This document shows positions 551 through 18,357 of a DNA stretch of 18,357 nt, piece by piece (positions within the stretch are counted from its first letter, which is position 1; every line of letters begins with the position of its first letter). The notes below the pieces were generated by a model. The model was not told the DNA's origin, made no database searches, and saw only the letters and a list, made by a program, of their open reading frames with translations. This DNA is from a virus (Duplodnaviria > Heunggongvirae > Uroviricota > Caudoviricetes): positions 1 through 18,357 of IMG/VR virus record IMGVR_UViG_2597489893_000006; one strand, written 5' to 3'. A program made the translations under genes and the position numbers.

Positions 551-574
551 ATTATAGCAATCAATTAGAGCAAT
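551..574 (-). promoter_or_regulatory. C1-operator-like 17-mer overlapping a perfect -10 TATAAT reading toward ref
   Basis: Positions 558-574 match the reverse complement of the C1 operator consensus ATTGCTCTAATAAATTT at 14/17. Minus-strand TATAAT lies at 551-556 immediately downstream. Confidence 0.45.
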
Positions 575-635
575 TAAAGTTATTTGTTTATCGCGAATCA
601 CATTTTTTCACTTCAGTACCTGTGTACTATACTCC

Positions 636-706
636 TTCTTGATTGATTGAATGCGGAATACAAACCCGCTTTTTTGTGCAGCCTGGCTCCTTGCCAGGCT
701 TTTTTT
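636..706 (+). ncRNA. Candidate small RNA unit (promoter-like -35 TTTTCA / -10 TATACT at 605-633, tandem intrinsic terminators at 652-675 and 680-706)
   Basis: Plus-strand TTTTCA, 17-nt spacer, TATACT. Downstream hairpin AGCCTGGC-TCCTT-GCCAGGCT followed by T7. A weaker GCGG..CCGC hairpin plus T6 sits just upstream. The unit is convergent with the 3' end of the minus-strand ORF 705-1016. Confidence 0.25.
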
Positions 707-1016
707 ATTTCAGCATGGAAGCTGTTAACGCTTTGGACCTTGCTGAACTGATTGAAAGGGCTTTGTCAACGTGCCCCAAAAATTCGCCAAACTCGGCCAT
801 CACTTTGGCAAAACCGCGCCGTGCTTCTTTCTCGGTGGCATTCATCACGAAATGTTCAGCACTACGCATACTTTTGACAGGGAACGCAACGGATATTGAG
901 TCAATATCAGGCATTCTATCGCTCAGCTTTACAGTGACAATGACGGCTGGCGACTGAATATTAGTGCTTACAGACAGCACTACATATTTTCCGTCGATGT
1001 TGAAATCCTTTCTCAC
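705..1016 (-). CDS. Hypothetical protein, 103 aa, immediately downstream of cre (position of P1 cra)
   Basis: Minus-strand ORF co-oriented with cre and ref; GGTGA Shine-Dalgarno-like sequence 2 nt upstream of the ATG. The overlapping plus-strand ORF 643-957 starts with TTG and contains the terminator, so the minus-strand frame is preferred. Confidence 0.45.
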   Translation of the reverse strand: MRKDFNIDGKYVVLSVSTNIQSPAVIVTVKLSDRMPDIDSISVAFPVKSMRSAEHFVMNATEKEARRGFAKVMAEFGEFLGHVDKALSISSARSKALTASMLK

Positions 1017-1032
1017 ATGTCACCATAAATAC

Positions 1033-1049
1033 CAAAGAATTAGAGCAAT
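1033..1049 (-). promoter_or_regulatory. C1-operator-like 17-mer between the cre stop and the downstream ORF
   Basis: caaagaattagagcaat matches the reverse complement of the operator consensus at 13/17, including the TTAGAGCAAT core. Confidence 0.35.
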
Positions 1050-1066
1050 CATTTGCGCGCTAATGG

Positions 1067-2098: not shown

Positions 2099-2105
2099 TT
2101 GACAC

Positions 2106-2327
2106 TCAGATAATGGTTTTAAGTAAAGTGTACAGGATCGGCTCTGCCTTTACCTGTTTATGGTTCTCGTCATAGAAACGCCAACGACCGCGACTGCGTT
2201 CTATCTTTTCTTCACCGCGCGATAATGACAGTTGACAACTATCACGATCAAACCCTTTTGCCCGCCAGTAACCACGATTTTTCTCAAGCTCAAGATGAGT
2301 GGACACTTTAGCAGCTGAATATCCCAT
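2106..2327 (-). CDS. Possible small basic protein (73 aa) ending 8 nt upstream of the cre ATG
   Basis: ATG preceded by GAGGTG two nt upstream; stop TGA 8 nt before the cre start, so translational coupling is possible. No recognisable domain. Confidence 0.25.
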   Translation of the reverse strand: MGYSAAKVSTHLELEKNRGYWRAKGFDRDSCQLSLSRGEEKIERSRGRWRFYDENHKQVKAEPILYTLLKTII

Positions 2328-2357
2328 TTTTCACCTCTGATTGATTGGTGGTGCTAA

Positions 2358-2420
2358 GTGCGCTACGCGAAATCTGGAGCACAAACACTGCCAACATTTC
2401 GCAGATTTTACGTAGCGCAA
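2358..2420. repeat. Imperfect 19-bp inverted repeat (dyad symmetry) in the cre upstream region
   Basis: GTGCGCTACGCGAAATCTG at 2358-2376 and CAGATTTTACGTAGCGCAA at 2402-2420 are complementary at 16/19, with a 25-nt spacer. Confidence 0.4.
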
Positions 2421-2422
2421 CC

Positions 2423-2497
2423 TTGATCAAATGATCAAGTGATCACTATTTGACCTGATAAGGTATTGAACTGTATGGATTTACAGGTAAATTGATC
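2423..2497. promoter_or_regulatory. Cluster of four GATC (Dam) sites, including three tandem TGATCA hexamers, between cre and loxP
   Basis: TTGATCAAATGATCAAGTGATCAC at 2423-2446 plus TTGATCATG at 2492-2499. P1 cre transcription is known to be Dam-sensitive. Confidence 0.45.
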
Positions 2498-2516
2498 ATG
2501 TTCAATAACCCTTAAG

Positions 2517-2550
2517 ATAACTTCGTATAATGTATGCTATACGAAGTTAT
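2517..2550. other. loxP: loxP recombination site
   Basis: Exact ATAACTTCGTATA-ATGTATGC-TATACGAAGTTAT: 13-bp inverted repeats flanking the 8-bp asymmetric spacer. Confidence 0.98.
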
Positions 2551-2593
2551 TAGGTCTGAAGAGGAGTTTACGTCCAGCTGCGCATAAAAATCA

Positions 2594-2610
2594 AGAATTA
2601 TTAGAGCAAT
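2594..2610 (-). promoter_or_regulatory. C1 operator (reverse orientation) upstream of coi-c1
   Basis: agaattattagagcaat matches the reverse complement of the operator consensus at 15/17. Confidence 0.6.
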
Positions 2611-2670
2611 AAATTTTGAGAGAAAAATCCCACTCCACCAGCCAAAAACTGGATTGTTTTTCATAGTTGT

Positions 2671-2697
2671 TTGACAATTGCTCTAATAAATTATAGT
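2671..2697 (+). promoter_or_regulatory. Rightward promoter (-35 TTGACA, -10-like TATAGT) with an embedded C1 operator, directed at coi-c1
   Basis: TTGACA at 2671-2676 is followed directly by ATTGCTCTAATAAATTA at 2677-2693 (16/17 to consensus), overlapping TATAGT. Confidence 0.6.
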
Positions 2698-2931
2698 TTT
2701 GCCGCCGTTTCGTAATACAACTTTGGATTCACTATTTAATGTGTCTTCAGCGTTGTAGAGCGGCTCAGAAGGAAATGAGCAAACAGGGAAACCTTATACA
2801 ACGGCATTACAGCTATGCATTGCTCATCTTACACACAGCGCAATGTTGTAGGATTACCCCAGCATGGATCATGGGTGAAACAGTAGGTCAGAGCTTCAGG
2901 CTCTGTGTTGTCAATACAGTGAGGCATAATT

Positions 2932-3141
2932 ATGGCTTTCATTCCACCAACCATCGACGACGTTAGACATTGCTCTAACGCTTTATCTGTAGACCCCGCC
3001 GAAACCGACGCTGCCCGCGCCATTGCTGAACACTACTCAAAGATATCCAATCAGGAGTACCGCATCACCCAAGACGACCTGGATGATCTCACTGACACAA
3101 TCGAATATCTCATGGCCACTAACCAGCCAGACTCACAATAA
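2932..3141 (+). CDS. coi: Coi, C1 inactivator
   Basis: 69-aa ORF immediately upstream of and co-oriented with c1, size and position as in P1; acidic C-terminus. Confidence 0.8.
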   Translation: MAFIPPTIDDVRHCSNALSVDPAETDAARAIAEHYSKISNQEYRITQDDLDDLTDTIEYLMATNQPDSQ

Positions 3142-3157
3142 ATGCACTAATAAATCT
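3141..3157 (+). promoter_or_regulatory. C1-operator-like 17-mer in the coi-c1 intergenic region
   Basis: aatgcactaataaatct matches the consensus at 14/17; sits at the coi stop codon. Confidence 0.45.
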
Positions 3158-3186
3158 ATTATTTTCGTTGGATCCTTCTATAATGG

Positions 3187-3229
3187 TGGCCAACAACTCC
3201 CAGTGTAATCCGCTGTGAGTTGTTGGCCA
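3187..3229 (+). promoter_or_regulatory. Perfect 13-bp inverted repeat (stem-loop) 10 nt upstream of the c1 Shine-Dalgarno
   Basis: TGGCCAACAACTC at 3187-3199 and GAGTTGTTGGCCA at 3217-3229 with a 17-nt loop; no downstream U-tract. Confidence 0.4.
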
Positions 3230-3251
3230 TGTCAATTCTGGAGGAGGATCA

Positions 3252-4103
3252 ATGATAAATTATGTCTACGGCGAACAACTGTACCAGGAGTTCGTCAGCT
3301 TCAGGGATCTCTTTCTAAAAAAAGCTGTTGCACGCGCCCAACACGTTGATGCCGCCAGCGACGGTCGTCCTGTTCGCCCGGTTGTCGTTCTGCCGTTCAA
3401 AGAAACGGACAGCATTCAGGCTGAAATTGATAAATGGACTTTAATGGCGCGGGAACTGGAACAGTACCCAGACCTCAATATCCCAAAGACTATTTTATAT
3501 CCAGTGCCTAACATCCTTCGCGGTGTGCGTAAGGTTACAACTTATCAGACAGAAGCTGTGAACAGCGTCAACATGACCGCTGGCCGCATTATTCATCTGA
3601 TTGATAAGGACATTCGCATCCAGAAAAGCGCGGGGATCAATGAGCACAGTGCGAAATACATAGAGAACCTGGAAGCAACAAAAGAGCTAATGAAGCAGTA
3701 CCCGGAGGATGAAAAATTCCGTATGCGTGTACACGGCTTTAGCGAAACAATGTTGCGCGTCCATTACATTTCCAGTAGCCCTAACTACAATGATGGTAAA
3801 TCAGTTAGTTACCATGTGCCGCTGTGTGGTGTGTTTATCTGCGATGAAACTCTCCGTGATGGAATCATCATCAACGGTGAATTCGAGAAAGCAAAATTTA
3901 GCCTTTATGACTCTATAGAACCGATCATCTGCGACCGCTGGCCGCAGGCAAAAATATATCGCCTGGCAGATATTGAAAATGTAAAAAAACAAATTGCCAT
4001 CACTCGCGAAGAGAAAAAGGTCAAATCAGCCGCATCAGTTACGCGCAGCCGTAAAACTAAGAAGGGGCAGCCAGTAAACAGCAACCCCGAAAGCGCGCAA
4101 TAG
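3252..4103 (+). CDS. c1: C1 repressor of lysis (primary immunity repressor)
   Basis: 283-aa ORF with strong GGAGGAGG Shine-Dalgarno; length, position next to coi and the operator sites fit P1 C1. Confidence 0.93.
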   Translation: MINYVYGEQLYQEFVSFRDLFLKKAVARAQHVDAASDGRPVRPVVVLPFKETDSIQAEIDKWTLMARELEQYPDLNIPKTILYPVPNILRGVRKVTTYQTEAVNSVNMTAGRIIHLIDKDIRIQKSAGINEHSAKYIENLEATKELMKQYPEDEKFRMRVHGFSETMLRVHYISSSPNYNDGKSVSYHVPLCGVFICDETLRDGIIINGEFEKAKFSLYDSIEPIICDRWPQAKIYRLADIENVKKQIAITREEKKVKSAASVTRSRKTKKGQPVNSNPESAQ

Positions 4104-4128
4104 TTTTCCATCCGGCATGGTCAAATTG

Positions 4129-5613
4129 TTATTCATTAAGCCATGCCAGAGCTTCATCAACCTGCGCTTCGTCTTCGACGCTAAGCACTTCATCTTGGGG
4201 AACATAGTTCGCCAACATAGCGAAACAATATGTATCCCAATGGTCCGGTGAGTGCAGGTTGAGTTTTTTCTTCATATCTTCCTTTGACATCACCTTCCAT
4301 TGACCTGCGGAATTTATCCCTACCGGTATCTTTGATGCTTCCTCTATAGTCGCAGCCCCCTTATCAAGCCGCATACGCCCTGATTTTACAGCTTCTGCCG
4401 CCTGAATATTCGCGAAAGCGCGCATATCGAAATAAAGGCTTTTATCTTCACGGCTGTGCATCTTTTTACCCCAGCGGATACGCTGGACGGTAATGCCATA
4501 GCGTTCGTACATTAGATCAGCCGTCGATTTCCCCAAGCCATCGCCATCAATAGCTATGGTTATGTTCGGGAACCGTTCTGGGTTACATTCTGCGAAAATC
4601 TTGGCGGCTAACTGCGTTTCTGTAACGTCTGTGTATTCCAGCATACGATAGTTGATTACACGGCGTTTATTTCGCTGGCCGGACACCATCATGATATTAA
4701 TAACGGACTTATCTCGTCCTGTGCCACCAGCAACGTCAACACATGCAACCCAGCCCCATCCTTTGGCAATCTTGACCTTTCGCCGCGTCGCCCGCTCAAC
4801 CTCATCACGACCAAGAAGAAAGCCATCTTGAGATTTGGGAAATTCACCACGTACTTTGATCATGTACATGGGGTTATCACGACCGCCATACTCCGCAAGT
4901 TTTGCTCGTATAAATTTTGCATCTACAAGCGGAGATTCTTCACTATTCAGTATTATCGCAGTAAACAATCCATCAGGATTTCCCGGGCGAATAGCTAGTC
5001 TGTGGTGTGAATCGTAGAAATAGCCTGAAGGTCGCGTAGGCTGGGAAAGAAGCAGAATACGGTTATCCTTACCGGTCAGCGCACCTGTTATCACACTGAA
5101 TGCTTTATCACTCACACCCGACGCTTCGTCGATGATATACAAGAGATGATCGGCGTGTTCACCAGCCAACGCCTCCTCATTTCCGGGGCGACAGGACTTT
5201 ATCAATATTGTCCAAACACCCTTGCCAGTCACCTCAAAAAAAGACGTTTCTGTAAGAATGAAATACTTCGACAACCACGGGAATCTGCTAACAGCAGTAG
5301 CCCAATTGCTCTTTATGTATTTGAAAATACCATCAAGGACTTGCTGTCTTTTGTTAGCGACCAGAATGACGCGAGCGCCGGGGAAAAACATGATGAAGAG
5401 TATTGCAATGATACTCGTCATATCCGATTTACCAGTACCATGGCCGGAGGTCACACTTGTCCAACTGCCGTCCTGCTGCGTGGACTCAATGATCTCATCC
5501 TGCTGCCAGGTTGGTGTCTTCCCAAACAACACATCAGCGGCCGCAATCCAGTCATAACGATATAGCGCCACAAGCTCGCGCCAACGTGGGTCCGTTACGC
5601 AACTTCTGGCCAT
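4129..5613 (-). CDS. pacB: PacB, terminase large subunit
   Basis: 494-aa ORF with a Walker-A-like SGHGTGKS motif; start overlaps the pacA stop (TAATG); convergent with c1. Confidence 0.9.
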
Positions 5614-6806
5614 TAATCATCATCCCCGTACAGTTTGCGGGTAACTTCTTCGTCTTCCTCCTCGTCTTCGTCCAGATCCTGTTCAAGCCATGCTTCGTTT
5701 GATATGCCTTCCGCATCGACATCACCATAACCACCTGTATCGACGATATCGGCAATTTCTTCTCTACGATGCTCAATCCACAATGCCGCATCAGCGCGGC
5801 GGCTGGCGGCCCGTTCTCGCGCGATTTTATCCAGATCTTCAAGTGATGGAGCGCCAGATGCTGTTTGGTTTTCCTCATCATCGGTATTGGTCTTAGGAGC
5901 ACGCAGATCGGCTTTGATTTGCTCCAGCATCAGGGGCGGCACTTTTCCTCCATGCGCCTCGATGAATTCAGCCGCTTCCAGCACTGACCAGTTATTTTCA
6001 CGCTTTCGTTCGTATGCCAGCTTAACAATGCCAGCTTGCCCCATAGACAAAGCGTGCTTTTCCGCCTCCCGGCTTTCTTTTCGATAGTTATTCCGGATGC
6101 TGTAAATGGTGTTGATCAGGCTGCTTATCTGCGCGGAACAGCTGTTTAGCATGCTCGCGATACGGTATTCAGGCGGAGTACCTTCATCATCGTCTTTTTG
6201 CTGATCGCGCATTTCCTGCACCAGGCGAATACACGTATCCCTGGCGTTCTCCAGCATAAGGAGATGAGAAAGAGACTTTTCCAGAAGAGTGGTTTCCAGA
6301 ACATCGGCCCCGGACCGACGCAACATAGCGCGCGCGGCCTTCCGCGCTTCAACGTTATCTATCAGGTAATCGCCAGCTTCGAATTCAAAGCGTTCACCAT
6401 CATCATCCAGGGTGTCGCGTTCCAGGCGATCACGTAAGGTCCGGTGGGCGCGGGTGATCACGTCATGATCATCTGAACGATCATTTATGCGCTTATTTTG
6501 GCGCTTCGCATTATCGACTGCGGCACTGACAACGGCATTAACTCTTTGTTTTTCATCCATTTCAGCCACAACGTGATCACCTGCACGTTGATCATTAGCG
6601 TGATCAATGATCATGCTTTTTAGTGGTTTCCTGACAGGCTTATTTGGCTTACGGCTGTCCGCTGTTCCGGTGTCTTCTTTGAATGCACGGAGATAACGAC
6701 GTGCGGTGTTTGGGTTGAGATTAAACTCGGCGGCATATTGTGCGATGGTGTAACCACCATCTCGCGCCAGGCGAGCAAAATTCTTCTTGTGATCGTCCCA
6801 GGTCAC
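5613..6806 (-). CDS. pacA: PacA, terminase small subunit / pac-recognition protein
   Basis: 397-aa ORF with an acidic C-terminal tail; contains the GATC-hexamer pac site within its coding sequence, as in P1. Confidence 0.9.
6427..6614. other. pac: pac packaging site: two clusters of TGATCA(G/C)-type hexamers flanking an ~90-bp region
   Basis: Cluster 1 at 6427-6484 (cGATCAc, TGATCAC, TGATCAT, cGATCAt) and cluster 2 at 6574-6613 (TGATCAC, TGATCAT, TGATCAA, TGATCAT); eight GATC sites in under 190 bp inside pacA. Confidence 0.8.
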
Positions 6807-6892
6807 TTATGCTTCCTTTCGTATAAAACTCTTTTTGACGCGAGGGTAACGAAAGTCACATGTCAAAAGGCCCGGAACGGGCAAGCAATCAA

Positions 6893-7345
6893 TCAGATAC
6901 GTGCGGATGTGGCATTACCGTAATGACGGTGCTGACGGACCACCTTATTGAAAAATTGACGCGCCATTACCCAAGGCTGGTGCTCCCGGCGTTCCTTTTC
7001 GTCCTGCGTCATATAGAGTTCGTTCTGGAGTTTTTCATCAAACCGGCGCGGAGCGCGACTGCGGCGAAAGAATTCAGGATTCAGAGAGTGGATCTGAAAT
7101 CTACGTGGGCGTGTACTGTCATCAATCAAAACAGACGAATACTTAGACACAGCGATAGCCTTTAAGCGCAGATAAACATCGCGCTTATCGACATCCAGAT
7201 GCGGGTATTCCTTTTCAAGAATTGCTGCGAGTTCTTTCGCTGATAGAAGAGATTTAGTGCGGATCATGTAATCCGCAATCTCGTACGATGTTATTCGTGA
7301 GTGATTTATTTCCATGAAGTGGCGTCCCTGCCAGTTAAGTAACAT
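6893..7345 (-). CDS. lpa: Lpa, late promoter activator
   Basis: 150-aa ORF between pacA and a C1-operator-containing promoter, matching P1 order; AGGTGA Shine-Dalgarno 4 nt upstream of the ATG. Confidence 0.75.
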   Translation of the reverse strand: MLLNWQGRHFMEINHSRITSYEIADYMIRTKSLLSAKELAAILEKEYPHLDVDKRDVYLRLKAIAVSKYSSVLIDDSTRPRRFQIHSLNPEFFRRSRAPRRFDEKLQNELYMTQDEKERREHQPWVMARQFFNKVVRQHRHYGNATSARI

Positions 7346-7415
7346 CCTGTCACCTACTGATTAGCCCATGTCAACTAATCAACGTCGAATATAATACCCT
7401 CGATTAAAGAAATAG

Positions 7416-7432
7416 CAATACATTAGAGCAAT
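7416..7432 (-). promoter_or_regulatory. C1 operator within the lpa promoter region
   Basis: caatacattagagcaat matches the reverse complement of the consensus at 14/17. On the minus strand it is followed by TTGCTA, 17 nt, TATTAT, then the lpa ribosome-binding site. Confidence 0.55.
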
Positions 7433-7433
7433 T

Positions 7434-8477
7434 TTATCTAACACTCGACGAATGACTTGTGATAGCGCCAACTCCAAGCGCGTAATCAAAGAACAATCGT
7501 TGATGCATCGCCAGCCTACCGTGCGTCTTCTCCCAATTATCGCGGTCACGCTCAATATCACGCTGGCATGACTGGCACAGAGGAATAGCATAAATGTCAT
7601 GCGCGCATAATCGACTATGACGAACTATATAAGGCGTAATGTGAGCGCCAGCTCCCGCAGCTCCACAGCCACAGCATGGACGGGAAGCCACAAAGTCCAT
7701 GTACTCGGGCAATTTTAGCGATTGAAGTTTTGGTATTTTGAAATGCGCCATACCTGGGTCGGAGTCAACATCCACAGGGCATACTTTTGCACGCATCGGC
7801 GCGGCGCGTTCTTCCATCATCTGAACATATGCTGTAGCGCGATCGTCATACGGGCGAATATCCGCCTCTTTCAGAGGTCCGCTATCCTGCGGAATAGCCT
7901 TCATCTTATTTATTGATATGCGGCAGACTTCTTCCGGCATCAGGTGCATCATGTTGCGCATGAAAGCCCACCAGCACAGCTCCTGAATACTTAAATCATG
8001 GCTATTTGAAAGGCCCATTTCCTGACGGGCGACATCCAGTATCCAGTTAACGCGATTATTGTGCAGCGTTTCTTTCAGCTCATTAAAACCACGCATCCGA
8101 TAATGGTGATCGTGATGCCAGCACAACAACACCGCGCTATTGTCTCGTTCAGCGTGGACAATATGGTTGTCACACCAACTACGATCTGCGGCCTGGCATT
8201 GCCCCTCTTTCCTGCGCAACCACGCCACCAGCGCGTCAATTCCACCAATACGGCGAAACAGTTCATCGCTGTTAAAAAACGGCTGCAACGCCTCATTTGT
8301 TGCCATGGTTTGCTCGGTAACAACGAGGCCGTCTTCCATGTGCTCGATTAACTCACGCGGCACCGGCTCCATAATAAATTTACGGCCAGCCTCCACCAGC
8401 TTTCTGACCTCCTGATCCACTTTGAACGTGGCGAGGCCAAGCTCTTTCTGTACAAAGGGAGTAATTACGGCTTTCAC
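7434..8477 (-). CDS. Cys/His-rich hypothetical protein (347 aa), possibly zinc-binding or HNH-like; occupies the post-doc position
   Basis: GTG start preceded by AAGGTG. Motifs CDNH...CWHHDHH...HNN and CCGCG...H...H..C.H...C..C. Co-oriented in the phd-doc operon; no confident family assignment. Confidence 0.6.
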
Positions 8478-8504
8478 ATCACACCTTTAATCACTGATTG
8501 GGCT

Positions 8505-8684
8505 TTATCTGCTGCCCGGCATTCTCTGTTTAAGCACAACCATTTCCTGACGGCATAACACAGCAATAGCAGTCCTGGCTCCAATTTGCTTACCAACCAG
8601 GTATTGCTTTACCTCGCGGCGACTCACGCCATCAAGAAGCATCTTTAACGCTTCACGGGACAATTTGTTGTATTTGCGTGCCAT
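8505..8684 (-). CDS. Small helix-turn-helix-like protein (59 aa), translationally coupled to doc
   Basis: ATG 4 nt after the doc stop, with GGAG 7 nt upstream. Sequence LSREALKMLLDGVSRREVKQYLVGKQIGARTAIAVL resembles a resolvase/invertase-type HTH. Confidence 0.5.
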   Translation of the reverse strand: MARKYNKLSREALKMLLDGVSRREVKQYLVGKQIGARTAIAVLCRQEMVVLKQRMPGSR

Positions 8685-8688
8685 TAAT

Positions 8689-9069
8689 CTACTCCGCAGA
8701 ACCATACAATCTACGTAACGTGTCGGCGACAGAAGATACAGATATCTCGCCAGTCGCAGCGCCTACAGTAAGGTCTGCCAGTTCAGGTGAATCAAATACC
8801 TGCACCCCGTTACGGCGTAGAAATAGCAGCGCGCTGTTTAGCGCGGTACGCTTATTGGCATCATTGAATATATGCCCTCTCGCTGTAGCCACCAGGTAGG
8901 TGGCGGAGACTTCGAAAAGGTCGGTGATCTCTTCGTAGGCAACTCTGGCCTGAACTCTCCCGATAATGGCCTCTGCCCTACCCGGATCTGACATTCCCGG
9001 CAGGCCGCCGTAGCGGCTTATATTCGCATCATGAAGCGCAATAAGTTCTTCCGGTGATATATGCCTCAT
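8689..9069 (-). CDS. doc: Doc toxin (Fic-family kinase)
   Basis: 126-aa translation with the Fic motif HIFNDANKR; start overlaps the phd stop (TAATG). Confidence 0.95.
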
Positions 9070-9290
9070 TATCGGTTAACCAGTTCCTTGTTGGTGGAGT
9101 CCAGGGTGTCAAACAGGGATGCAAATTCAGCATCCAGCGCCGCTTTTTTGTAGGCTTCGAAAGTAGCCTTGCTGACAATTACTGCTGGCTCACGACCTCT
9201 GCGGGTGATTTCAACCTCTTCCCCGGCTTCAACATTGTTGAGCACTTCAGAAAGGTTGCCGCGCGCGGTACGGAAGTTAATGGATTGCAT
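9069..9290 (-). CDS. phd: Phd antitoxin
   Basis: 73 aa from ATG at 9290 ([49 protein letters not shown]...), recognisable as P1 Phd. The ORF track's longer form starts at an upstream GTG. Confidence 0.95.
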
Positions 9291-9293
9291 AAA

Positions 9294-9330
9294 CACCTCG
9301 TGTACTCGTTATGTGTACACAATTATAAAC
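9294..9330 (-). promoter_or_regulatory. phd-doc promoter/operator: perfect TATAAT, palindrome TGTGTACACA and half-site GAGTACAC, then GAGGTG Shine-Dalgarno
   Basis: Minus strand reads TTTATAATTGTGTACACATAACGAGTACACGAGGTGTTTATG. Phd is known to autoregulate through palindromic operator sites in this promoter. Confidence 0.6.
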
Positions 9331-9466
9331 TTCACAGGCATAAAGCACCAGCACTTTGCGGCTTAACAAACCTCTAGGCAGGTCATTCGTAGCCTAATGT
9401 CCGAACTGCTAAAGCATCCAAGTTGCTGTAGAATCACCGCCAATTACATAAGCCTGAAATAAGTGG

Positions 9467-10501
9467 ATGAAAATGACAAGTATTCAACAACGTGCAGAGC
9501 TTCATCGTCAAATCTGGCAAATTGCTAACGATGTCAGGGGTTCGGTCGATGGATGGGATTTTAAGCAATACGTTCTGGGCGCACTTTTCTACCGTTTTAT
9601 CAGCGAAAATTTTTCCAGTTATATTGAAGCCGGTGATGACAGTATCTGTTATGCGAAACTGGATGACAGCGTAATTACTGATGACATTAAAGACGATGCC
9701 ATCAAAACTAAAGGCTACTTCATCTACCCCAGTCAGCTTTTCTGCAACGTAGCTGCGAAAGCAAATACCAATGACAGACTGAACGCAGATTTAAACAGCA
9801 TCTTCGTTGCTATCGAAAGTTCTGCTTACGGCTACCCTTCAGAAGCAGACATCAAAGGTTTGTTTGCTGATTTCGATACCACCAGTAACCGCCTGGGTAA
9901 CACCGTTAAAGATAAAAATGCCCGCCTGGCTGCGGTTCTGAAAGGGGTTGAAGGGTTAAAACTTGGTGACTTCAACGAACATCAGATTGACCTGTTCGGT
10001 GATGCCTATGAGTTCCTGATTTCTAACTATGCGGCAAATGCCGGTAAGTCAGGCGGTGAGTTCTTTACACCGCAGCACGTCTCCAAGCTGATTGCACAAC
10101 TGGCTATGCACGGGCAGACCAACGTTAACAAAATCTACGACCCGGCAGCGGGTTCCGGCTCACTGTTGTTGCAGGCTAAAAAGCAGTTTGATAACCATAT
10201 CATCGAAGAAGGCTTTTTTGGTCAGGAAATCAACCATACAACCTATAACCTGGCACGTATGAACATGTTTTTGCACAACATCAACTACGACAAGTTTGAT
10301 ATCAAGCTGGGTAATACACTGACTGAGCCACACTTCAGAGATGAAAAACCGTTTGATGCCATCGTTTCTAACCCGCCGTATTCGGTGAAATGGATTGGCA
10401 GCGATGACCCGACGCTGATTAACGATGAACGTTTTGCCCCGGCTGGCGTCCTGGCCCCCAAATCCAAAGCTGACTTTGCGTTTGTACTACATGCGCTGAA
10501 C
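9467..10501 (+). pseudogene. hsdM: hsdM (Type IC methyltransferase), 5' fragment of 345 codons, truncated by IS903
   Basis: Translation carries the AdoMet motif [10 protein letters not shown] and the N6-adenine motif NPPY. The reading frame runs into the IS903 inverted repeat and stops after 4 IS-encoded codons (GFVE-stop). Confidence 0.9.
10493..10501. repeat. IS903 target-site duplication, left copy (GCGCTGAAC)
   Basis: Identical 9-mer found at 11559-11567 directly flanking the other inverted repeat. Confidence 0.9.
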
Positions 10502-11558
10502 GGCTTTGTTGAATAAATCAGATTTCGGGTAAGTCTCCCCCGTAGCGGGTTGTGTTTTCAGGCAATACGCACGCTTTCAGGCATACCTGCTTTCGTCATT
10601 TTGTTCAGCGCTCGTACCAGGGCCATAGCCTCTGCAACCTGACCATCGTAGTCACGCAGTGTCAGTGAACCCCCGAACAGCTGTTTTACCCGGTACATCG
10701 CCGTTTCCGCTATCGAGCGACGGTTGTAATCTGTTGTCCATTTCCACCGCGCATTACTCCCGGTCATTCGCTGATTAGCCACTGCACGGTTACGGTCTGC
10801 ATATTCACCGGGCCAGTAACCCGCACCTTTTCGGGGTGGGATAAGCGCGCTGATTTTCTTACGCCGCAGTTCATCGTGACATAGCCGGGTATCGTAAGCG
10901 CCATCGGCGGCGGCTGACCTGATTTTCCGGTGGGTTTGCCGGATTAACCCGGGGAAGGCCTCTGAGTCCGTAACGTTGTTCAGCGACAGGTCAGCGCAGA
11001 TGATTTCATGTGTTTTACTGTCAACGGCGAGATGCAGCTTACGCCAGATACGGCGGCGTTCCTGGCCATGCTTTTTGACTTTCCACTCGCCTTCACCGAA
11101 GACCTTCAGCCCGGTGGAATCAATTACCAGGTGTGCGATTTCACCCCGGGTGGGCGTTTTGAAACTGACATTAACCGACTTTGCCCGCCTGCTGACACAG
11201 CTGTAATCCGGGCAGCGTAGCGGAACGTTCATCAGAGAAAAAATGGAATCAATAAAGCCCTGCGCAGCGCGCAGGGTCAGCCTGAATACGCGTTTAATGA
11301 CCAGCACAGTCGTGATGGCAAGGTCAGAATAGCGCTGAGGTCTGCCTCGTGAAGAAGGTGTTGCTGACTCATACCAGGCCTGAATAGCTTCATCATCCAG
11401 CCAGAAAGTTATGGAGCCACGGTTGATGAGGGCTTTATTGTAGGTGGGCCAGTTGGTGATTTTGAACTTTTGCTTTGCCACGGAACGGTCTGCGTTGTCG
11501 GGAAGATACGTGATCTGATCCTTCAACTCAGCAAAAGTTCGATTTATTCAACAAAGCC
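10502..11558 (-). mobile_element. IS903 (IS5 family, IS903 group), complete 1057-bp copy
   Basis: Perfect 18-bp terminal inverted repeats GGCTTTGTTGAATAAATC (10502-10519) and GATTTATTCAACAAAGCC (11541-11558); length 1057 bp; 9-bp direct duplication on both sides; transposase ORF inside. Confidence 0.95.
10558..11481 (-). CDS. IS903 transposase (DDE), 307 aa from a GTG start
   Basis: Translation ...AKQKFKITNWPTYNKALINRGSITFWLDDEAIQAWYE... matches IS903/IS102 transposase as I recall it. The ORF track's 322-aa form begins at an upstream TTG. Confidence 0.88.
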   Translation of the reverse strand: MAKQKFKITNWPTYNKALINRGSITFWLDDEAIQAWYESATPSSRGRPQRYSDLAITTVLVIKRVFRLTLRAAQGFIDSIFSLMNVPLRCPDYSCVSRRAKSVNVSFKTPTRGEIAHLVIDSTGLKVFGEGEWKVKKHGQERRRIWRKLHLAVDSKTHEIICADLSLNNVTDSEAFPGLIRQTHRKIRSAAADGAYDTRLCHDELRRKKISALIPPRKGAGYWPGEYADRNRAVANQRMTGSNARWKWTTDYNRRSIAETAMYRVKQLFGGSLTLRDYDGQVAEAMALVRALNKMTKAGMPESVRIA

Positions 11559-11567
11559 GCGCTGAAC
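11559..11567. repeat. IS903 target-site duplication, right copy (GCGCTGAAC)
   Basis: Identical to 10493-10501. Confidence 0.9.
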
Positions 11568-12095
11568 TATCTTTCGGCCAAAGGTCGTGCTGCGATTGTC
11601 TGCTTCCCGGGTATTTTTTACCGTGGCGGCGCGGAGCAGAAAATCCGTCAGTATCTGGTCGATAATAACTATGTCGAAACCGTGATTTCACTGGCACCGA
11701 ACCTGTTCTTTGGCACCACTATTGCTGTAAACATTCTGGTGCTGTCTAAACATAAAACGGATACCAAAGTTCAGTTTATTGATGCCAGCGAACTGTTCAA
11801 AAAAGAAACCAACAACAATATCCTGACCGATGCCCATATCGAACAGATTATGCAGGTATTTGCCAGCAAGGAAGATGTTGCTCATCTGGCGAAATCTGTT
11901 GCGTTTGAGACTGTTGTCGCGAATGACTATAACCTGTCGGTGAGCAGCTATGTGGAAGCGAAAGATAACCGCGAAATTATCGATATCGGTGAGCTGAATG
12001 CAGAGCTGAAAACCACGGTCAGCAAAATCGACCAGTTGCGTAAAGATATTGATGCAATTGTGGCTGAAATTGAAGGCTGCGAGGTGCAGAAATGA
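11559..12095 (+). pseudogene. hsdM: hsdM 3' fragment (C-terminal 175 codons plus the duplicated ALN codons)
   Basis: Frame continues from the duplicated GCG CTG AAC into [49 protein letters not shown]... Removing the IS and one duplication copy restores a 520-codon ORF (the 1066-bp insertion is a +1 frame shift, which matches the observed frames). Confidence 0.9.
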
Positions 12096-13297
12096 GCGAG
12101 ATGAGTTATCTGGAAAAATTGCTGGATGGGGTTGAGGTTGAGTGGAAGACACTTGGGCAAACTTGCAAAATTGAAACAGGAAAGCTTAATGCGAATGCGG
12201 CTGTTGATGATGGAGAGTATATGTTCTTCACGACAGCCAAAGAGACAAGCAAAATTGATAAATTCCGCTGGGATACAGAGGCATTGCTGATTGCAGGCAA
12301 TGCGAATGTTGGTGAGGTGAAGCATTACATCGGCAAGTTTGAGGCTTATCAGCGCACCTATGTTCTGACAAATTTCGACGAAAATGTAAGTGTTAGATTT
12401 TTGTATTTTGTGCTTAGCCATAGCCTGAAGAAATATCTCGAGGAAAGAACAAATAGCGCGGCAATGACATATATCGTGCTATCAACCTTAGAGAATTTCC
12501 CTATCCCCATCCCCTGCCCGGATAATCCGGAAAAATCCCTTGCCATCCAGTCTGAAATCGTTCGGATTCTGGATAAATTTACTGCACTTACCGCTGAGCT
12601 TACCGCTGAGCTTAACATGCGTAAAAAACAGTACAACTACTATCGCGACCAGTTGTTGAGTTTTAAAGATGGTGAGGTTGAGTGGAAGACTTTGGGGGAA
12701 ATTGGAGATTTTACATATGGATATGCAGCCAAAGCCATGGATTCAGGAGATGCCCGTTTCGTGAGAATTACTGACATAAATAAAGACGGGAAGCTATCGA
12801 AAGAAAACCCAATGTACGTTGAATTAAATGAGGAAAATGAGAAATATACCTTAGACAAAAATGATTTACTCATGGCAAGAACTGGGGCAACCTTTGGTAA
12901 AACAATGATTTTTGAAGAAGATTATCCAGCAGTATACGCTGGTTTTTTAATAAAGTTGAACCTAAATAAAACGATTATTAATGCCAAATATTACTGGCAC
13001 TTTGCACAAAGTGATTTTTTTTGGGAACAGGCTAATAAATTAGTATCTGGTGGTGGGCAACCACAGTTTAATGCTAATGCACTGAAACAAGTCAGAGTAC
13101 CTATTCCATACCCATCTCACCCTCAAAAATCTTTAGACGAACAGGGGCGTATTGTGGATATTCTGGATAAGTTTGATGCAATCGCAGCTTCCATCACCGA
13201 AGGTCTTCCGCGTGAAATCGAGTTGCGCCAGAAACAATACGAATACTACCGTGATTTACTGTTCAGTTTCCCGAAACCTGAAACTGCCAGTAATTAA
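12092..13297 (+). CDS. hsdS: HsdS, Type IC specificity subunit
   Basis: 401 aa; ATG overlaps the hsdM stop (ATGA). Conserved N-terminal, central and C-terminal regions with internal duplication (VEWKTLG twice; ILDKF twice) and a central TAELTAEL repeat; two variable target-recognition domains. Confidence 0.9.
12587..12610 (+). repeat. Two tandem copies of the 12-bp repeat CTTACCGCTGAG (encoding TAEL-TAEL) in the hsdS central conserved region
   Basis: Directly visible tandem repeat. In the EcoR124I/EcoR124II family the copy number (2 versus 3) sets the spacer length of the recognition sequence. Confidence 0.85.
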
Positions 13298-13418
13298 TTG
13301 ATCATTGCTACCGATCGGACCACCTTAACACCCGGTCAGTATATAGACTATTTTTTACGCGCCGGAAGTCACCATTACCCCCCTTCCGGCCCTTGCCAGA
13401 CGGCACAAAGGATGCGCT

Positions 13419-16400
13419 ATGACTCATCAGACACACACCATTGCTGAATCCAATAACTTTATCGTTCTTGATAAGTACATCAAAGCTGAGCCAACAGGCG
13501 ACAGCTACCAGAGCGAATCGGACCTGGAACGTGAACTGATTCAGGACCTGCAAAATCAGGGTTATGAATTTATTTCCGTAAAATCACAGTCGGCAATGCT
13601 GTCCAATGTTCGGGAACAGCTTCAGAGCCTCAATGGTGTGATGTTTAATGACAGCGAGTGGCGGCGCTTCACGGAGCAGTATCTGGACAACCCCAGCGAT
13701 GGTATTCTGGATAAAACCCGTAAAATCCATATCGACTATATCTGCGACTTTATTTTTGATGACGGGCGACTTGAGAACATCTATTTGATAGATAAAAAGA
13801 ATCTCATGCGCAATAAGGTGCAGATTATCCAGCAGTTTGAACAGACGGGTTCTCATGCTAACCGTTATGACGTCACGATCCTGGTTAATGGTTTACCGCT
13901 GGTGCAAATCGAACTAAAAAAACGCGGGGTGGCGATTCGTGAGGCTTTCAACCAGATACATCGTTACAGTAAAGAGAGTTTTAACAGCGAAAATTCCCTG
14001 TTTAAGTATCTGCAACTGTTTGTCATTTCTAACGGCACCGATACCCGTTATTTTGCCAACACGACAAAGCGCGATAAAAACAGTTTTGACTTCACCATGA
14101 ATTGGGCGAAATCAGACAACACGCTGATTAAAGACCTCAAAGACTTTACCGCTACCTTTTTCCAGAAACATACTCTGCTGAATGTTCTGGTGAACTACAG
14201 CGTTTTTGACAGTAGTCAGACGCTACTGGTGATGCGACCGTACCAGATTGCCGCCACCGAGCGCATTCTGTGGAAAATTAAGAGTTCCTTTACAGCGAAG
14301 AACTGGTCAAAACCGGAAAGCGGTGGGTATATCTGGCACACTACCGGTTCTGGTAAAACCCTCACCAGCTTTAAAGCCGCGCGTCTGGCAACAGAGCTGG
14401 ACTTTATTGATAAAGTCTTCTTTGTGGTCGACAGGAAAGACCTCGATTACCAGACCATGAAGGAATATCAGCGTTTTTCGCCAGACAGCGTCAACGGCTC
14501 GGAAAATACCGCAGGCCTTAAACGAAATCTGGATAAGGACGATAACAAAATTATCGTCACTACTATTCAGAAACTCAATAACCTGATGAAAGCAGAAAGC
14601 GACCTGCCTGTATATAATCAGCAAGTGGTGTTTATATTTGATGAATGCCACCGCAGCCAGTTTGGAGAAGCGCAGAAAAACCTGAAGAAGAAATTCAAAC
14701 GCTATTATCAGTTTGGTTTTACCGGCACACCTATTTTCCCGGAAAACGCCTTAGGCTCAGAAACGACCGCCAGCGTATTTGGTCGTGAATTGCATTCGTA
14801 TGTAATTACCGATGCGATTCGTGATGAAAAAGTGCTCAAATTCAAGGTGGACTACAACGATGTGCGGCCACAGTTTAAGTCTTTAGAGACAGAAACTGAC
14901 GAGAAAAAACTAAGTGCGGCTGAAAATCAGCAGGCGTTTCTTCATCCCATGCGTATACAGGAAATTACGCAATATATTCTGAATAACTTCCGCCAGAAGA
15001 CGCACCGTACTTTCCCTGGCGCAAAAGGTTTTAATGCTATGTTGGCAGTGAGCAGCGTGGATGCTGCAAAAGCCTATTACGCGGCGTTTAAACGGTTACA
15101 AGAGGAAGCCGCTAATAAATCTGCAACTTATAAACCGCTGCGTGTTGCGACAATCTTCTCCTTTGCCGCTAATGAAGAACAAAATGCCATTGGTGAAATT
15201 TCCGATGAAACTTTTGATACCAGCGCAATGGACAGCAGTGCTAAAGAGTTTCTTGACGCTGCAATTCGTGAGTATAACAGCTATTTTAAAACTAACTTCA
15301 GCACCGACGGTAACGGTTTTCAGAACTACTATCGCGATTTAGCCCAACGGGTTAAAAATCAGGATATCGATCTGTTAATTGTCGTTGGGATGTTTTTAAC
15401 CGGCTTCGACGCTCCAACATTGAACACGCTATTCGTCGATAAAAACTTGCGTTTTCACGGCCTGATGCAGGCATTTTCCCGCACCAACCGCATTTATAAC
15501 GCCACTAAAACCTTCGGTAACATTGTCACTTTTCGGGATCTGGAACGCTCAACCATTGATGCCATAACGCTGTTTGGTGATAAAAATACCAAAAATGTGG
15601 TGTTAGAAAAGAGTTATGCAGAGTATATGGAAGGTTTTACTGATGCTGCCACCGGTGAAGCCAAACGCGGCTTTATGGCAGTAGTTTCAGAACTGGAACA
15701 ACGGTTCCCTGACCCTGCCAGTATTGAAAGTGAAAAAGAGAAGAAAGACTTCGTTAAACTGTTTGGCGAATACCTGCGTGCCGAGAACATCCTGCAAAAC
15801 TATGATGAATTTGCCACGCTAAAAGCCCTGCAACAAATCGATCTTAGCGATCCTGTTGCGGTAGAAAAATTCAAAGCAGAACATTATGTGGATGATGAAA
15901 AGTTCGCTGAATTGCAAACAATTCGTCTCCCTGCTGATCGCAAGATTCAGGATTATCGTTCTGCCTATAACGATATTCGCGACTGGCAGCGCCGTGAGAA
16001 AGAAGCTGAGAAAAAAGAGAAATCAACCACTGACTGGGATGACGTGGTTTTTGAGGTCGATTTGCTGAAGTCTCAGGAAATAAACCTGGATTATATCCTT
16101 GGACTGATTTTCGAACACAACAGACAAAATAAAGGCAAGGGCGAAATGATCGAAGAGGTCAAACGCTTAATTCGTTCAAGCCTGGGGAACCGGGCGAAAG
16201 AGGGCCTGGTGGTCGATTTTATTCAGCAAACGAACCTGGATGATTTACCAGACAAAGCCAGTATCATTGAGGCATTCTTTACGTTTGCTCAACGCGAACA
16301 GCAACGTGAAGCAGAAGCATTGATAAAAGAAGAAAATCTCAATGAAGATGCAGCAAAACGCTATATTCGCACGTCTTTAAAACGCGAATACGCCACCGAA

Positions 16401-16535
16401 AATGGCACAGAATTAAACGAAACATTACCAAAACTTAGTCCGTTGAATCCGCAATATAAAACGAAAAAACAGGCAGTTTTCCAGAAAATCGTCTCGTTTA
16501 TTGAGAAGTTTAAAGGCGTAGGCGGAAAAATATAG
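13419..16535 (+). CDS. hsdR: HsdR, Type IC restriction endonuclease/translocase subunit
   Basis: 1038 aa with an N-terminal PD-(D/E)xK-like nuclease motif (D...IELKK), Walker A TGSGKT and a DECH box ([10 protein letters not shown]); length equals EcoR124I HsdR. Confidence 0.93.
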
Positions 16536-16550
16536 CCCAATTCGTGTTTT

Positions 16551-16580
16551 TCTTGCGGGTTCTTAATTAAACCCGCAAGA
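16551..16580. repeat. Perfect 10-bp inverted repeat hairpin 16 nt after the hsdR stop, without a 3' U-tract
   Basis: TCTTGCGGGT (16551-16560) and ACCCGCAAGA (16571-16580) with a 10-nt loop. Confidence 0.4.
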
Positions 16581-16614
16581 GCTCGTGGGGTTCCAAATGG
16601 CTAATATACTCCCC

Positions 16615-16701
16615 TTACCCATGCGCGACGATGCCGTCAAAAGTGATAGAGAACAGCCAGAAATAGATCGCGGCCATAATGATTTTGAATGCCGTGTTCA
16701 T
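16615..16701 (-). CDS. Candidate small hydrophobic peptide, 28 aa (MNTAFKIIMAAIYFWLFSITFDGIVAHG)
   Basis: ATG preceded by AGGAG with an 8-nt spacer; one predicted transmembrane-like segment. Lies antisense between the hsdR stop and the plus-strand terminator, downstream of a C1-operator-like site. Confidence 0.3.
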   Translation of the reverse strand: MNTAFKIIMAAIYFWLFSITFDGIVAHG

Positions 16702-16727
16702 ATTTTCAGCTCCTGTGATTGATTGGA

Positions 16728-16761
16728 AACATGCCGCGCCTTGCGGCATGTTTTTATTTTT
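16728..16761 (+). terminator. Rho-independent terminator (plus-strand orientation)
   Basis: AACATGCCGC-GCCTT-GCGGCATGTT (10-bp stem) followed by TTTTTATTTTT. Confidence 0.7.
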
Positions 16762-16783
16762 ACTTTCTCTGTTTTAAAAATCA

Positions 16784-16800
16784 AGATTTATTAGAACAAT
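16784..16800 (-). promoter_or_regulatory. C1-operator-like 17-mer abutting the stop codon of the HAD-like gene
   Basis: agatttattagaacaat matches the reverse complement of the consensus at 15/17. It shares the extended context AAAAATCAAGA with the operator at 2594-2610. Confidence 0.5.
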
Positions 16801-17306
16801 TATTGTTGATGAAGAAGCGCATTTTCATACTCCCTGACCATTAATGTAAGTACGCCATGACTCCTGAACACACGCGCCACTTCAATCTTATCTTCCAGCG
16901 CGAACGCAATTTTACTTAGACCAATTTTCTTCAGGAGATCAATCTTTGCTGGACCGTCATTTCTGTCATCGGTGGCAGGACGCATAGATAGCAAAGGCTC
17001 AGCCCCGTTTGTTACGTACTTCCGCAGCCAGGCTCGTGTTTTATCCCTTGCGATCTCACAGCGCCCGGTTACAAACCAGACCGTGTAAACGTTAAATAAC
17101 TGGCGCACCATATCAATAACTGGAGTGATGGGAGCATCAGTGTCACAGGCAAGGTTAAACTCGTTCCAGTGCTCTGTTAATGCACCTTTGCCAGGTGGTG
17201 GAAGTAAATGCAGCCTGTCTTCCGTTGCCTCTGATATCGTCCCATCAATATCTACTATGACGATGTACGGACGTTCCTGGTGTGCGTGTTTATTGAAAAT
17301 ACTCAA
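16800..17306 (-). CDS. HAD-superfamily phosphatase-like protein (DxDGT motif), 168 aa
   Basis: N-terminal IVIVDIDGTISE matches HAD motif I (as in polynucleotide kinase 3'-phosphatase domains and other HAD enzymes). Start is TTG preceded by GAGGAGGG. Confidence 0.6.
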   Translation of the reverse strand: MSIFNKHAHQERPYIVIVDIDGTISEATEDRLHLLPPPGKGALTEHWNEFNLACDTDAPITPVIDMVRQLFNVYTVWFVTGRCEIARDKTRAWLRKYVTNGAEPLLSMRPATDDRNDGPAKIDLLKKIGLSKIAFALEDKIEVARVFRSHGVLTLMVREYENALLHQQ

Positions 17307-17325
17307 ATGCCCTCCTCATTGGACG

Positions 17326-17358
17326 AAAAAAATGCTGGTGGGAGCACTCCACCAGCAT
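17326..17358 (-). terminator. Rho-independent terminator (minus strand) after the coiled-coil protein gene
   Basis: Minus strand reads ATGCTGGTGG-AGTGCTC-CCACCAGCAT followed by TTTTTTT. Confidence 0.65.
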
Positions 17359-17378
17359 TAAAAGTGACACTGTAACTA

Positions 17379-18356
17379 TCAGCGAACGTAAATAGTGCCG
17401 CCGTTCTCTTTTTCCCATGCATCGCTACGTGCATAGCAAACATCGAGAAGTCTTCTTGCCGCAGTTTCCTCTAAACCCAATTCGACAACCAACTGCTCAT
17501 GACGGCGGGTAACCACATCAAACAGGGTATGCAGCCCTTTAGTTGCCAGATCATCAATGAATTCCGGTTCGAACGGCAGCTCTGCATCTGCCAACATAAC
17601 CTCTTGCGCCCACTCAACTCGACGGACCAATTCCGGGCGGCGGCTTTCCATCTCTTTACAGATCAATTCATGGAAGAACTCTACCCAACCTTCCGGCTGA
17701 AACTCGCGGAAAATTGCCAACGGCTGGAAGTTTGGCATCAACCATTCGTTGATTCGGATATCAATGGCATAGCCCATGTCGCAGCAGAACTGATAAGCAA
17801 AGTCCAGCTTAGAAACGATATAAGGACGCTCGTTATTGAACTCTTTAGGCGATGAGATCCCATAAGCCAGGAGGCGCGGGAAGAAGGAGATTTGCCCTAA
17901 CGTCGGATGAAGTTTGCTTGCAGGGAAACGGCGCTCAGTAATGCCATACATTTCCTTCTTGAGCGTCGCAAATTTGGCATTCTCATTAACCAGCGCGGTA
18001 ACCTCTGCTTTTTTATTAGCAAATGCCACGCGCGCCTCGCTTGCATCTTTAATAGTTTTTTTGAGCTGTTGGTTAAGGTCGGCGACCTGCTTACGCAGTT
18101 CCTGTCGCTCGCTTTTAGCTTTGTTATAGCGTTTCTCAAGGTTAAAAGGATCAAGTTTCATGATCTCTTTATATTGAGATTTTAGCGTTGAAATCTGTGA
18201 GTTCCGCAGTTCAACCATCGCGGTCATTTCATTGAGTTTTGTTTCCAGCTCAATGCTTATACGTTCGGCATTATCAGCACGCTGGTTGGAGTCATGCGTC
18301 GCATCGTCGATCGCGTCCTGTTGCTGGTGACCTGCCCCCACGATTAGATACAACAC
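17379..18356 (-). CDS. Hypothetical protein with predicted coiled-coil region and C-terminal globular domain; 5' end beyond the window
   Basis: Open frame with no stop up to the window edge. About 100 residues of heptad-like Lys/Glu/Leu-rich sequence (ELETKLNEMTAMVELRNSQISTLKSQYKE...KQVADLNQQLKK...) are followed by a mixed hydrophobic/aromatic domain; no recognised catalytic motif. Confidence 0.55.
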   Translation of the reverse strand: MLYLIVGAGHQQQDAIDDATHDSNQRADNAERISIELETKLNEMTAMVELRNSQISTLKSQYKEIMKLDPFNLEKRYNKAKSERQELRKQVADLNQQLKKTIKDASEARVAFANKKAEVTALVNENAKFATLKKEMYGITERRFPASKLHPTLGQISFFPRLLAYGISSPKEFNNERPYIVSKLDFAYQFCCDMGYAIDIRINEWLMPNFQPLAIFREFQPEGWVEFFHELICKEMESRRPELVRRVEWAQEVMLADAELPFEPEFIDDLATKGLHTLFDVVTRRHEQLVVELGLEETAARRLLDVCYARSDAWEKENGGTIYVR

Positions 18357-18357
18357 T

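Follow-up and report, generated by a model that had tools for sequence, protein, structure and literature searches.

What does the Type I restriction-modification locus of a P1-like phage-plasmid do for its carrier? IMG/VR virus record IMGVR_UViG_2597489893_000006 (positions 1 to 18,357; this whole stretch of 18,357 nucleotides is called the window below) carries the genes hsdM, hsdS and hsdR beside the phd-doc addiction genes of a P1-family backbone. A first-pass annotation of the window had taken the three genes for a complete Type I system forming a defence/addiction island with phd-doc. We are highly confident of a different joint reading, namely that the locus is a known and common Type IC cargo of P1-like backbones whose hsdM has been knocked out here by the insertion sequence (IS) IS903.

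Affiliation of the hsd genes

The genes hsdM, hsdS and hsdR all lie on the + strand, span positions 9467-16535 in that order and gave strong Pfam and NCBIfam matches. They are located directly upstream of phd, which is divergent from them. The HsdR protein aligned end to end with HsdR of EcoR124I (2w00_A) at 2277 bits and ~98% identity, with 18 substitutions among the 968 residues displayed. It has all four EcoR124-type Pfam domains (HSDR_N, SWI2_SNF2/ResIII, T1R_D3-like, and PF12008 EcoR124_C), and the same alignment showed that the ELK nuclease motif, GSGKT and DECH are kept. HsdM, reconstructed by removing the IS in silico, was identical to EcoR124 HsdM (7bst_D) at 517 of 520 residues. When HsdS was aligned to 7bst_A, its N-terminal, central (LTAELTAEL, with two TAEL repeats) and C-terminal conserved regions were identical to those of EcoR124, whereas both target-recognition domains diverged from those of EcoR124I. 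With Type I motifs and domains thus recovered by alignment in the hsd open reading frames (ORFs), the first-pass description of Type IC, EcoR124-like genes in the order hsdM-hsdS-hsdR was borne out.

Type I families are defined by subunit exchange, according to PMC12707154. By its sequence, we class the cassette as a Type IC (EcoR124-family) member by descent, disrupted and presumably not functional. The prototype of Type IC, EcoR124I/EcoR124II of plasmids R124 and R124/3 (structures 2w00 and 7bst), has the same gene order, the ~98% identity of HsdR extends over 1038 residues, two TAEL repeats are found in both HsdS proteins, and the DNA downstream of hsdR in the EcoR124 loci is P1-derived, as it is here. 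The two systems differ in that hsdM is interrupted by IS903 in the window and in their replicon, which is a P1-like backbone here and a conjugative plasmid there. Since both HsdS recognition domains differ from those of EcoR124I, the target sequence differs as well. The same paper gives GAA(N6)RTCG as the EcoR124I target and an N7 spacer for Type IC members with four extra central HsdS residues, among them EcoDXXI. Two TAEL repeats are present here, and a target spacer of 6 base pairs (bp) is therefore predicted. The HsdS allele is common: in a large protein search its 98%-identical cluster comprised 209 member sequences, from Escherichia coli.

IS903 insertion in hsdM

A copy of IS903 (IS5 family) interrupts hsdM between codons 345 and 346, midway through the N6_Mtase domain; it shares 99.9% identity with the IS903 of phage HK022. 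The element has the features of IS903, with a length of 1057 bp, 18-bp terminal inverted repeats (GGCTTTGTTGAATAAATC), a perfect 9-bp target-site duplication (GCGCTGAAC) and a single DDE transposase gene, which is intact. The broken hsdM ORF (9467-10516) encodes 349 residues, of which the last four (GFVE) are IS-encoded. No ORF spans both halves, the fragments encoding 349 and 137 residues versus 520 in the whole protein, and an intact HsdM of EcoR124 type is not present in the window as it stands. When IS903 and one repeat copy were deleted in silico, the frame was exactly restored to a single hsdM ORF of 520 residues.

These observations bear on two other explanations. An intact, working Type IC system, acting with phd-doc as a live defence/addiction island, would agree with full-length hsdS and hsdR, with the near-identity of all three genes to functional EcoR124 and with the intact hsdM of IS-free siblings. 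It is nevertheless contradicted by the sequence, because hsdM is split within its catalytic domain and its halves share no ORF; we exclude it and give it almost no probability. The first-pass claim of a complete Type I system consequently fails, since IS903 splits the catalytic domain of HsdM, a subunit required for modification as well as restriction. As for the proposed defence/addiction island, the cassette does adjoin an intact phd-doc pair (Pfam, tblastn), but its restriction system is not complete.

The second explanation is an assembly artefact, in which a mis-join via a multicopy IS disguises a cassette that is really intact. IS903 is indeed multicopy in Enterobacteriaceae, with thousands of matching records, and a sibling contig (L006) that is identical over 10.5 kilobases (kb) lacks the IS. 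A mis-join would not, however, produce an element that is complete with its two inverted repeats and lies between exact 9-bp copies of hsdM sequence, nor would excision of the IS and one duplication copy then restore the frame exactly, and we judge an artefact to be very improbable. The duplication and the exact frame restoration mark the insertion as a genuine simple transposition.

Three IS-free relatives show the state without IS903. E. coli E166 (NZ_CP032067.1) is 100.0% identical over window positions 9000-17000 apart from the IS, and plasmid p1-T-HYM1 (NZ_CP141768.1) is 99.4% identical over the cargo. IMG/VR UViG_2663763232_000010, which is contig L006, is 99.99-100% identical; it matches window positions 1-10501 at 99.99% and then runs straight into the 3' part of hsdM. 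Unlike in the window, hsdM is uninterrupted in all three, which have the same 401-residue HsdS and the same neighbours. In p1-T-HYM1, an IS903B copy is located elsewhere, beside blaCTX-M-27.

No record with both IS903::hsdM junctions was found in complete E. coli genomes, PLSDB plasmids or IMG/VR, and the junction searches yielded a match to the left junction only; it lies in E. coli WCHEC050613 (NZ_CP019213.3), in a chromosomal island that is unrelated. Since a 100.0% identical IS-free copy exists and both junctions occur in no other searched record, the insertion is probably recent and private. In WCHEC050613, a Type IC hsdM is interrupted by IS903B, which sits at the very nucleotide used here and points the same way. 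The hsdM allele is only 95.8% identical, however, 4 of 1057 nucleotides distinguish the two IS copies, and the locus lies in a chromosomal transfer RNA (tRNA)-Ser island. Its right flank is unrelated DNA and lacks a target duplication, which indicates that the locus underwent further rearrangement. The use of one site in two Type IC hsdM genes hints at a target hotspot, or at an old shared event followed by recombination.

Functional state of the disrupted cassette

In EcoR124I, an M2S1 complex methylates the bipartite target, and HsdR is recruited on unmodified DNA for translocation driven by adenosine triphosphate (ATP) and distant cleavage (PMC12707154). In an intact copy of the present cassette, two HsdM and one HsdS would form the methyltransferase and methylate one adenine per half-site; HsdR would join on unmodified targets, pull DNA with ATP and cut at a distance. 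In the window, the sole M subunit gene is severed within its catalytic domain. The hsdS start overlaps the hsdM stop (ATGA, 12092-12095), and IS903 separates hsdS both from the hsdM promoter and from translational coupling to hsdM. With hsdM split, the M2S core would be missing and neither modification nor restriction would take place. Because no M2S core could form, the phenotype is most likely no restriction and no modification (r- m-).

The promoter shared by hsdM and hsdS presumably lies in the upstream segment 9367-9466, although a promoter consensus scan of that segment scored none. A separate candidate promoter for hsdR was noted in the hsdS-hsdR spacer, at a promoter-like site found by consensus scan. 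Across the window, the sites returned by a promoter/terminator scan were not enriched over shuffles. The candidate promoter of hsdR may still allow HsdR to be produced, but the protein would be inert without the M2S core.

Partial or new activity of the broken cassette, through the truncated HsdM(1-345) or through HsdS and HsdR expressed by read-out from IS903, was also considered. The 349-residue HsdM fragment keeps motif I, for S-adenosylmethionine, and NPPY, hsdS and hsdR are intact, and transposon-generated truncations of Type IC hsdS are known to create new specificities (PMC12707154, references 167 and 168). Those precedents concern HsdS, however, not HsdM, and the fragment lacks the second half of N6_Mtase and the whole C-terminal region. 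There is also no sign of selection: the insertion is one private event, and nothing else has changed in comparison with the 100.0%-identical sibling. The chance of residual activity therefore seems very slim to us, and the r- m- state is preferred.

Cargo boundaries and the replaced P1 module

The boundaries were set by pairwise BLAST of the window against the P1 reference (NC_005856). Window positions 2534-9366 correspond to P1 94800-87970 with 98.7% identity, and positions 16611-18327 to P1 84482-82766 with 98.6% identity. The cargo resolved in this way occupies 9367-16610 (7244 bp in all and 6178 bp once IS903 and one repeat are subtracted). The hsd genes do lie at 9467-16535, where the first-pass annotation had placed the cargo, but the cargo itself is slightly wider. 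It replaces the P1 segment 84483-87969 (3487 bp), which in P1 and P7 holds pmgT-U-V, upfM-N-O, hot, lxr and humD; P1 and P7 share the backbone on both sides (cre, c1, pacAB, lpa, pdcAB, doc, phd, pap, and pmgS) with 98.6-98.7% identity. On the left, P1 homology breaks off right at the stop codon of humD, which is retained (TTAA), and the right break falls 5 nucleotides upstream of the position of the pmgT start codon in P1. The hsd genes are oriented opposite to the P1 module that they replace.

None of humD, lxr, hot, upfM/N/O and pmgT/U/V was detectable in the window by blastn or tblastn, whereas the Phd and Pap controls were found. The first-pass remark that P1 itself has humD, hot and lxr at this place, and that none is recognizable here, agrees with the P1 annotation and these searches, and the reference P1 genome has no hsd genes at the position. 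The composition of the genes also departed from that of the flanks, as the cargo interpretation had predicted. The guanine plus cytosine (GC) content was 43.6% in the hsd coding regions (hsdS, 40.7%) versus 48.9% in the backbone genes and 49.1% in the P1 pmgT-humD genes. The codon-usage distance to the backbone was 0.031 for hsd and 0.017 for the P1 pmgT-humD module; between the two backbone halves it was 0.016.

Distribution and earlier records

The same joints are marked in the P1 record, where 87969-88647 is given as "98 pct identical" to the DNA of an E. coli conjugative plasmid that precedes the EcoDXXI hsd locus, and 84263-84482 and 84399-84482 as homologous to DNA downstream of EcoDXXI and R124/3 hsdR. 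The breakpoints 9366/9367 and 16610/16611 (P1 87969 and 84482) coincide with these flank marks. The EcoDXXI locus has the same P1 junctions, with the phd/doc side reaching P1 87969 and the other side starting from 84482 with the pmgT leader, Op88 and pap. Type IC hsd loci flanked by P1 DNA were reportedly the subject of a study by Tyndall, Lehnherr, Sandmeier, Kulik and Bickle in 1997 (Mol Microbiol 23:729). That study is reference 364 of PMC12707154. The pmgT-to-humD interval is variable region 8 of P1-like phage-plasmids in a 2022 survey (PMC9603915).

Among 5426 complete E. coli genomes, the phd|hsdM junction (300 bp) was present in 700 and the reference phd|humD junction in 470, and in 128 of the 5426 at least 80% of the whole window is present. 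Coverage of window positions 9000-17000 reaches 80% or more in at least 65 PLSDB plasmids, and the cassette also occurs in phage records, including vB_EcoM-673R5. The hsd state is commoner than the reference P1 arrangement in sequenced E. coli. A Type IC cargo at the phd-doc joint is long published, known since 1997, and the novelty implied by the first-pass annotation is not upheld, given the junctions in the P1 record, the 1997 study and the genome counts.

The cassette is the foreign segment, to judge from its deviant composition, the leftover PpmgT promoter and leader, and the humD stop codon at the left joint, even though it now represents the commoner state. The reverse polarity, with hsd as the older occupant and the pmgT-humD module as the incomer, would fit the higher count of the phd|hsdM junction. 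Against it, the pmgT-humD module is backbone-like in composition whereas hsd deviates in GC content and codon usage, the retained C1-controlled PpmgT and leader face the slot in the orientation of pmgT and opposite to hsd, and a humD stop codon was left behind. We regard the reverse order as unlikely and retain hsd as the incoming segment.

Recurrent decay of the cassette was considered, since an annotated hsdM or hsdS is missing from some plasmid records, and dropped; these cases resemble noise from sequencing or annotation and were left aside. In p1-HYM1 (NZ_CP141766.1), doc, hsdM and hsdS are all labelled "frameshifted" in a long-read assembly, and CP122701.1 merely lacks an hsdM annotation. 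The split of hsdR in the annotation of vB_EcoM-673R5 (HsdR1/HsdR2) and the frameshifts of p1-HYM1 both resemble long-read homopolymer error. Counts of "intact" cassettes taken from annotations would be unreliable.

Assessment of the joint reading

Several points weigh against the reading of the locus as a known Type IC cargo knocked out by IS903. The hsdM and hsdR promoters stand at the level of consensus or presumption, and the names in the cluster of the HsdS allele are all the generic "restriction endonuclease subunit S", which points to no recognition sequence. The insertion is read from the assembled sequence, and the r- m- state is deduced from the way Type I enzymes are built. Joints of the hsd type are commoner than those of the P1 type, and frequency alone cannot tell which state is derived.

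Right joint of the cargo

The retained pmgT leader, the PpmgT promoters and the C1 operator Op88 all face left, toward hsdR and its 3' end. Between Op88 and the hsdR stop there are two strong hairpins, one in hsd-specific DNA and one in P1-derived DNA. The latter looks like an hsdR terminator borrowed from the pmgT leader.

An unannotated ORF encoding 28 hydrophobic residues (MNTAFKIIMAAIYFWLFSITFDGIVAHG) is located downstream of the C1-controlled PpmgT promoters, and P1 and the five relatives checked all have it intact; in two relatives it shows three synonymous and no non-synonymous changes relative to P1. The cargo boundary falls 4 nucleotides past its stop, so the ORF is whole in hsd carriers. 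With pmgT gone, C1-repressible PpmgT/Op88 might drive this ORF, and in intact siblings it could couple restriction to the prophage state: hsdR would be expressed under C1 repression, and upon induction convergent transcription would damp hsdR and spare newly replicated phage DNA. This is a speculative idea that we consider quite unlikely, and it is moot for the window, whose system is broken.

P1-family backbone and window ends

The window is a Punavirus (P1-family) segment in reversed orientation relative to the P1 reference record (megablast against phage records). The blocks cre-c1-pacBA-lpa-pdcBA-doc-phd and pap-pmgS are syntenic with P1, with 98.6-98.7% identity over 6.8 kb and 1.7 kb and with C1 operators in place, in agreement with the backbone proposed in the first-pass annotation. 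A C1 operator consensus scan of the window gave seven operator-like sites versus 0.11 expected by chance. The earlier statement that C1 operators flank the cassette on both sides holds only loosely, with Op88 close by on the right but the nearest operator on the left, Olpa, ~2 kb away. An Rfam scan of the window found no non-coding RNA. The features are listed in Table 1.

All matches stopped at positions 30 and 18327, and the first 29 and last 30 bases were suspected to be artificial; they proved to be real mobile-element termini. Homology to every P1 relative ends at 18327, and the last 30 bases (18328-18357) are the end of an IS3-family element, ISSen4; an exact 32-nucleotide match annotated as ISSen4 transposase occurs in 366 E. 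coli genomes. ISSen4 cuts pmgS, which would run to ~18641, about 105 codons from its start. On the other strand, the first 29 bases (GGGGTTTGAGGGCCAATGATGTAAAAAACC) look like a Tn3-family terminal inverted repeat. In contig L006 the sequence runs on (10564-11238) into the C-terminal part of a Tn3-type transposase (Pfam DDE_Tnp_Tn3, 1e-76). Of the 103 positions of the RecA_dep_nuc profile, the ref-like ORF covers only 1-64, and ref appears to have been truncated by a Tn3-family insertion. In related P1-like plasmids, this ref-mat area contains transposons with blaCTX-M-27 (PMC11117986). Since a mobile element interrupts pmgS at one window edge and ref at the other, it is doubtful that the source element is a complete inducible phage, and it may be a defective one.

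Table 1 Coordinates of features in the window and, in the last three rows, in compared records.
Feature	Position	Strand	Evidence or remark
ref-like ORF, truncated	22-564	-	P1 annotation and family scans
cre	1067-2098	-	P1 annotation and family scans
c1	3252-4103	+	P1 annotation and family scans
pacB and pacA	4129-6806	-	P1 annotation and family scans
lpa	6893-7345	-	P1 annotation and family scans
Olpa, nearest C1 operator to the left of the cassette	7416-7432		~2 kb off, beyond phd, doc, pdcA, and pdcB
pdcB, pdcA, doc, phd	7434-9290	-	P1 annotation and family scans
doc, toxin gene of the P1 addiction module	8689-9069	-	Pfam Fic/DOC; inside the 98.7% P1 homology block
phd, antitoxin	9069-9290	-	tblastn, 73/73 residues identical to P1 Phd; Pfam PhdYeFM
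Pphd promoter	~9322-9350; TATAAT at 9322-9327	-	P1 annotation transfer and sequence reading
hsd-specific upstream segment, left cargo edge	9367-9466	+	P1 homology ends at 9366
hsdM 5' part, codons 1-345	9467-10501	+	HsdM_N and N6_Mtase profile positions 2-171 of 311; motif I DPAAGSGS, motif IV NPPY
Target-site duplication, 9 bp, left copy	10493-10501		Direct-repeat search and script check
IS903 (IS5 family), 1057 bp	10502-11558	-	99.9% identical to IS903 of phage HK022
IS903 terminal inverted repeats, 18 bp	10502-10519 and 11541-11558
IS903 transposase ORF, intact	10558-11526	-	Pfam DDE_Tnp_1_5/DDE_Tnp_1; NCBIfam IS5 transposase equivalog, 357 bits
Target-site duplication, 9 bp, right copy	11559-11567		Direct-repeat search and script check
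hsdM 3' part, codons 346-520 and stop, without own start	11568-12095	+	N6_Mtase profile positions 210-310 of 311
137-residue GTG ORF, hsdM remnant only	11682-12095	+
hsdS, 401 residues, intact	12092-13297	+	Pfam Methylase_S, two matches; alignment to 7bst_A
hsdS-hsdR spacer with promoter-like site 13325-13354 (TTAACA-18-TATTTT)	13298-13418	+	Consensus scan only
hsdR, 1038 residues, intact	13419-16535	+	Full-length alignment to 2w00_A; TIGR00348, 763 bits
hsd-specific downstream tail, right cargo edge	16536-16610	+	P1 homology resumes at 16611
Hairpin in hsd-specific DNA	16553-16580		T-run before the stem, not after
Retained P1 pmgT leader	16611-16800	-	P1 annotation transfer, offset +6292
28-residue hydrophobic ORF, unannotated	16615-16701	-	AGGAG ribosome-binding site
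Hairpin in P1-derived DNA	16724-16756		T-run follows on the + strand
PpmgT promoters	~16756-16799	-	Transferred from P1 annotation
Op88/OpmgT, C1 operator	16784-16800		~250 bp past the hsdR stop; operator consensus match
pap, 3'-phosphatase, right-hand backbone neighbour	16800-17306	-	tblastn, 98% identity to P1 Pap; Pfam HAD_PNKP
pmgS, putative head-morphogenesis gene, interrupted	17379-18327	-	P1 annotation
hsdM::IS903B region of WCHEC050613	13019-15117 of NZ_CP019213.3 excerpt		Compared with window 10493-10502
Frameshifted annotations of p1-HYM1	681-4221 (excerpt coordinates)
Split hsdR annotation of vB_EcoM-673R5	12600-18551 (excerpt coordinates)

Implications

A knockout of hsdM by IS903 is an ordinary event, and the finding matters little beyond correct annotation; in predictions of defence repertoires, the locus should be scored as a disrupted system and not as an active one. 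For the family, it illustrates that P1-like phage-plasmids exchange their native SOS/morphogenesis module for a Type IC cassette at fixed joints, and, through the present copy, how readily an insertion sequence silences such cargo.

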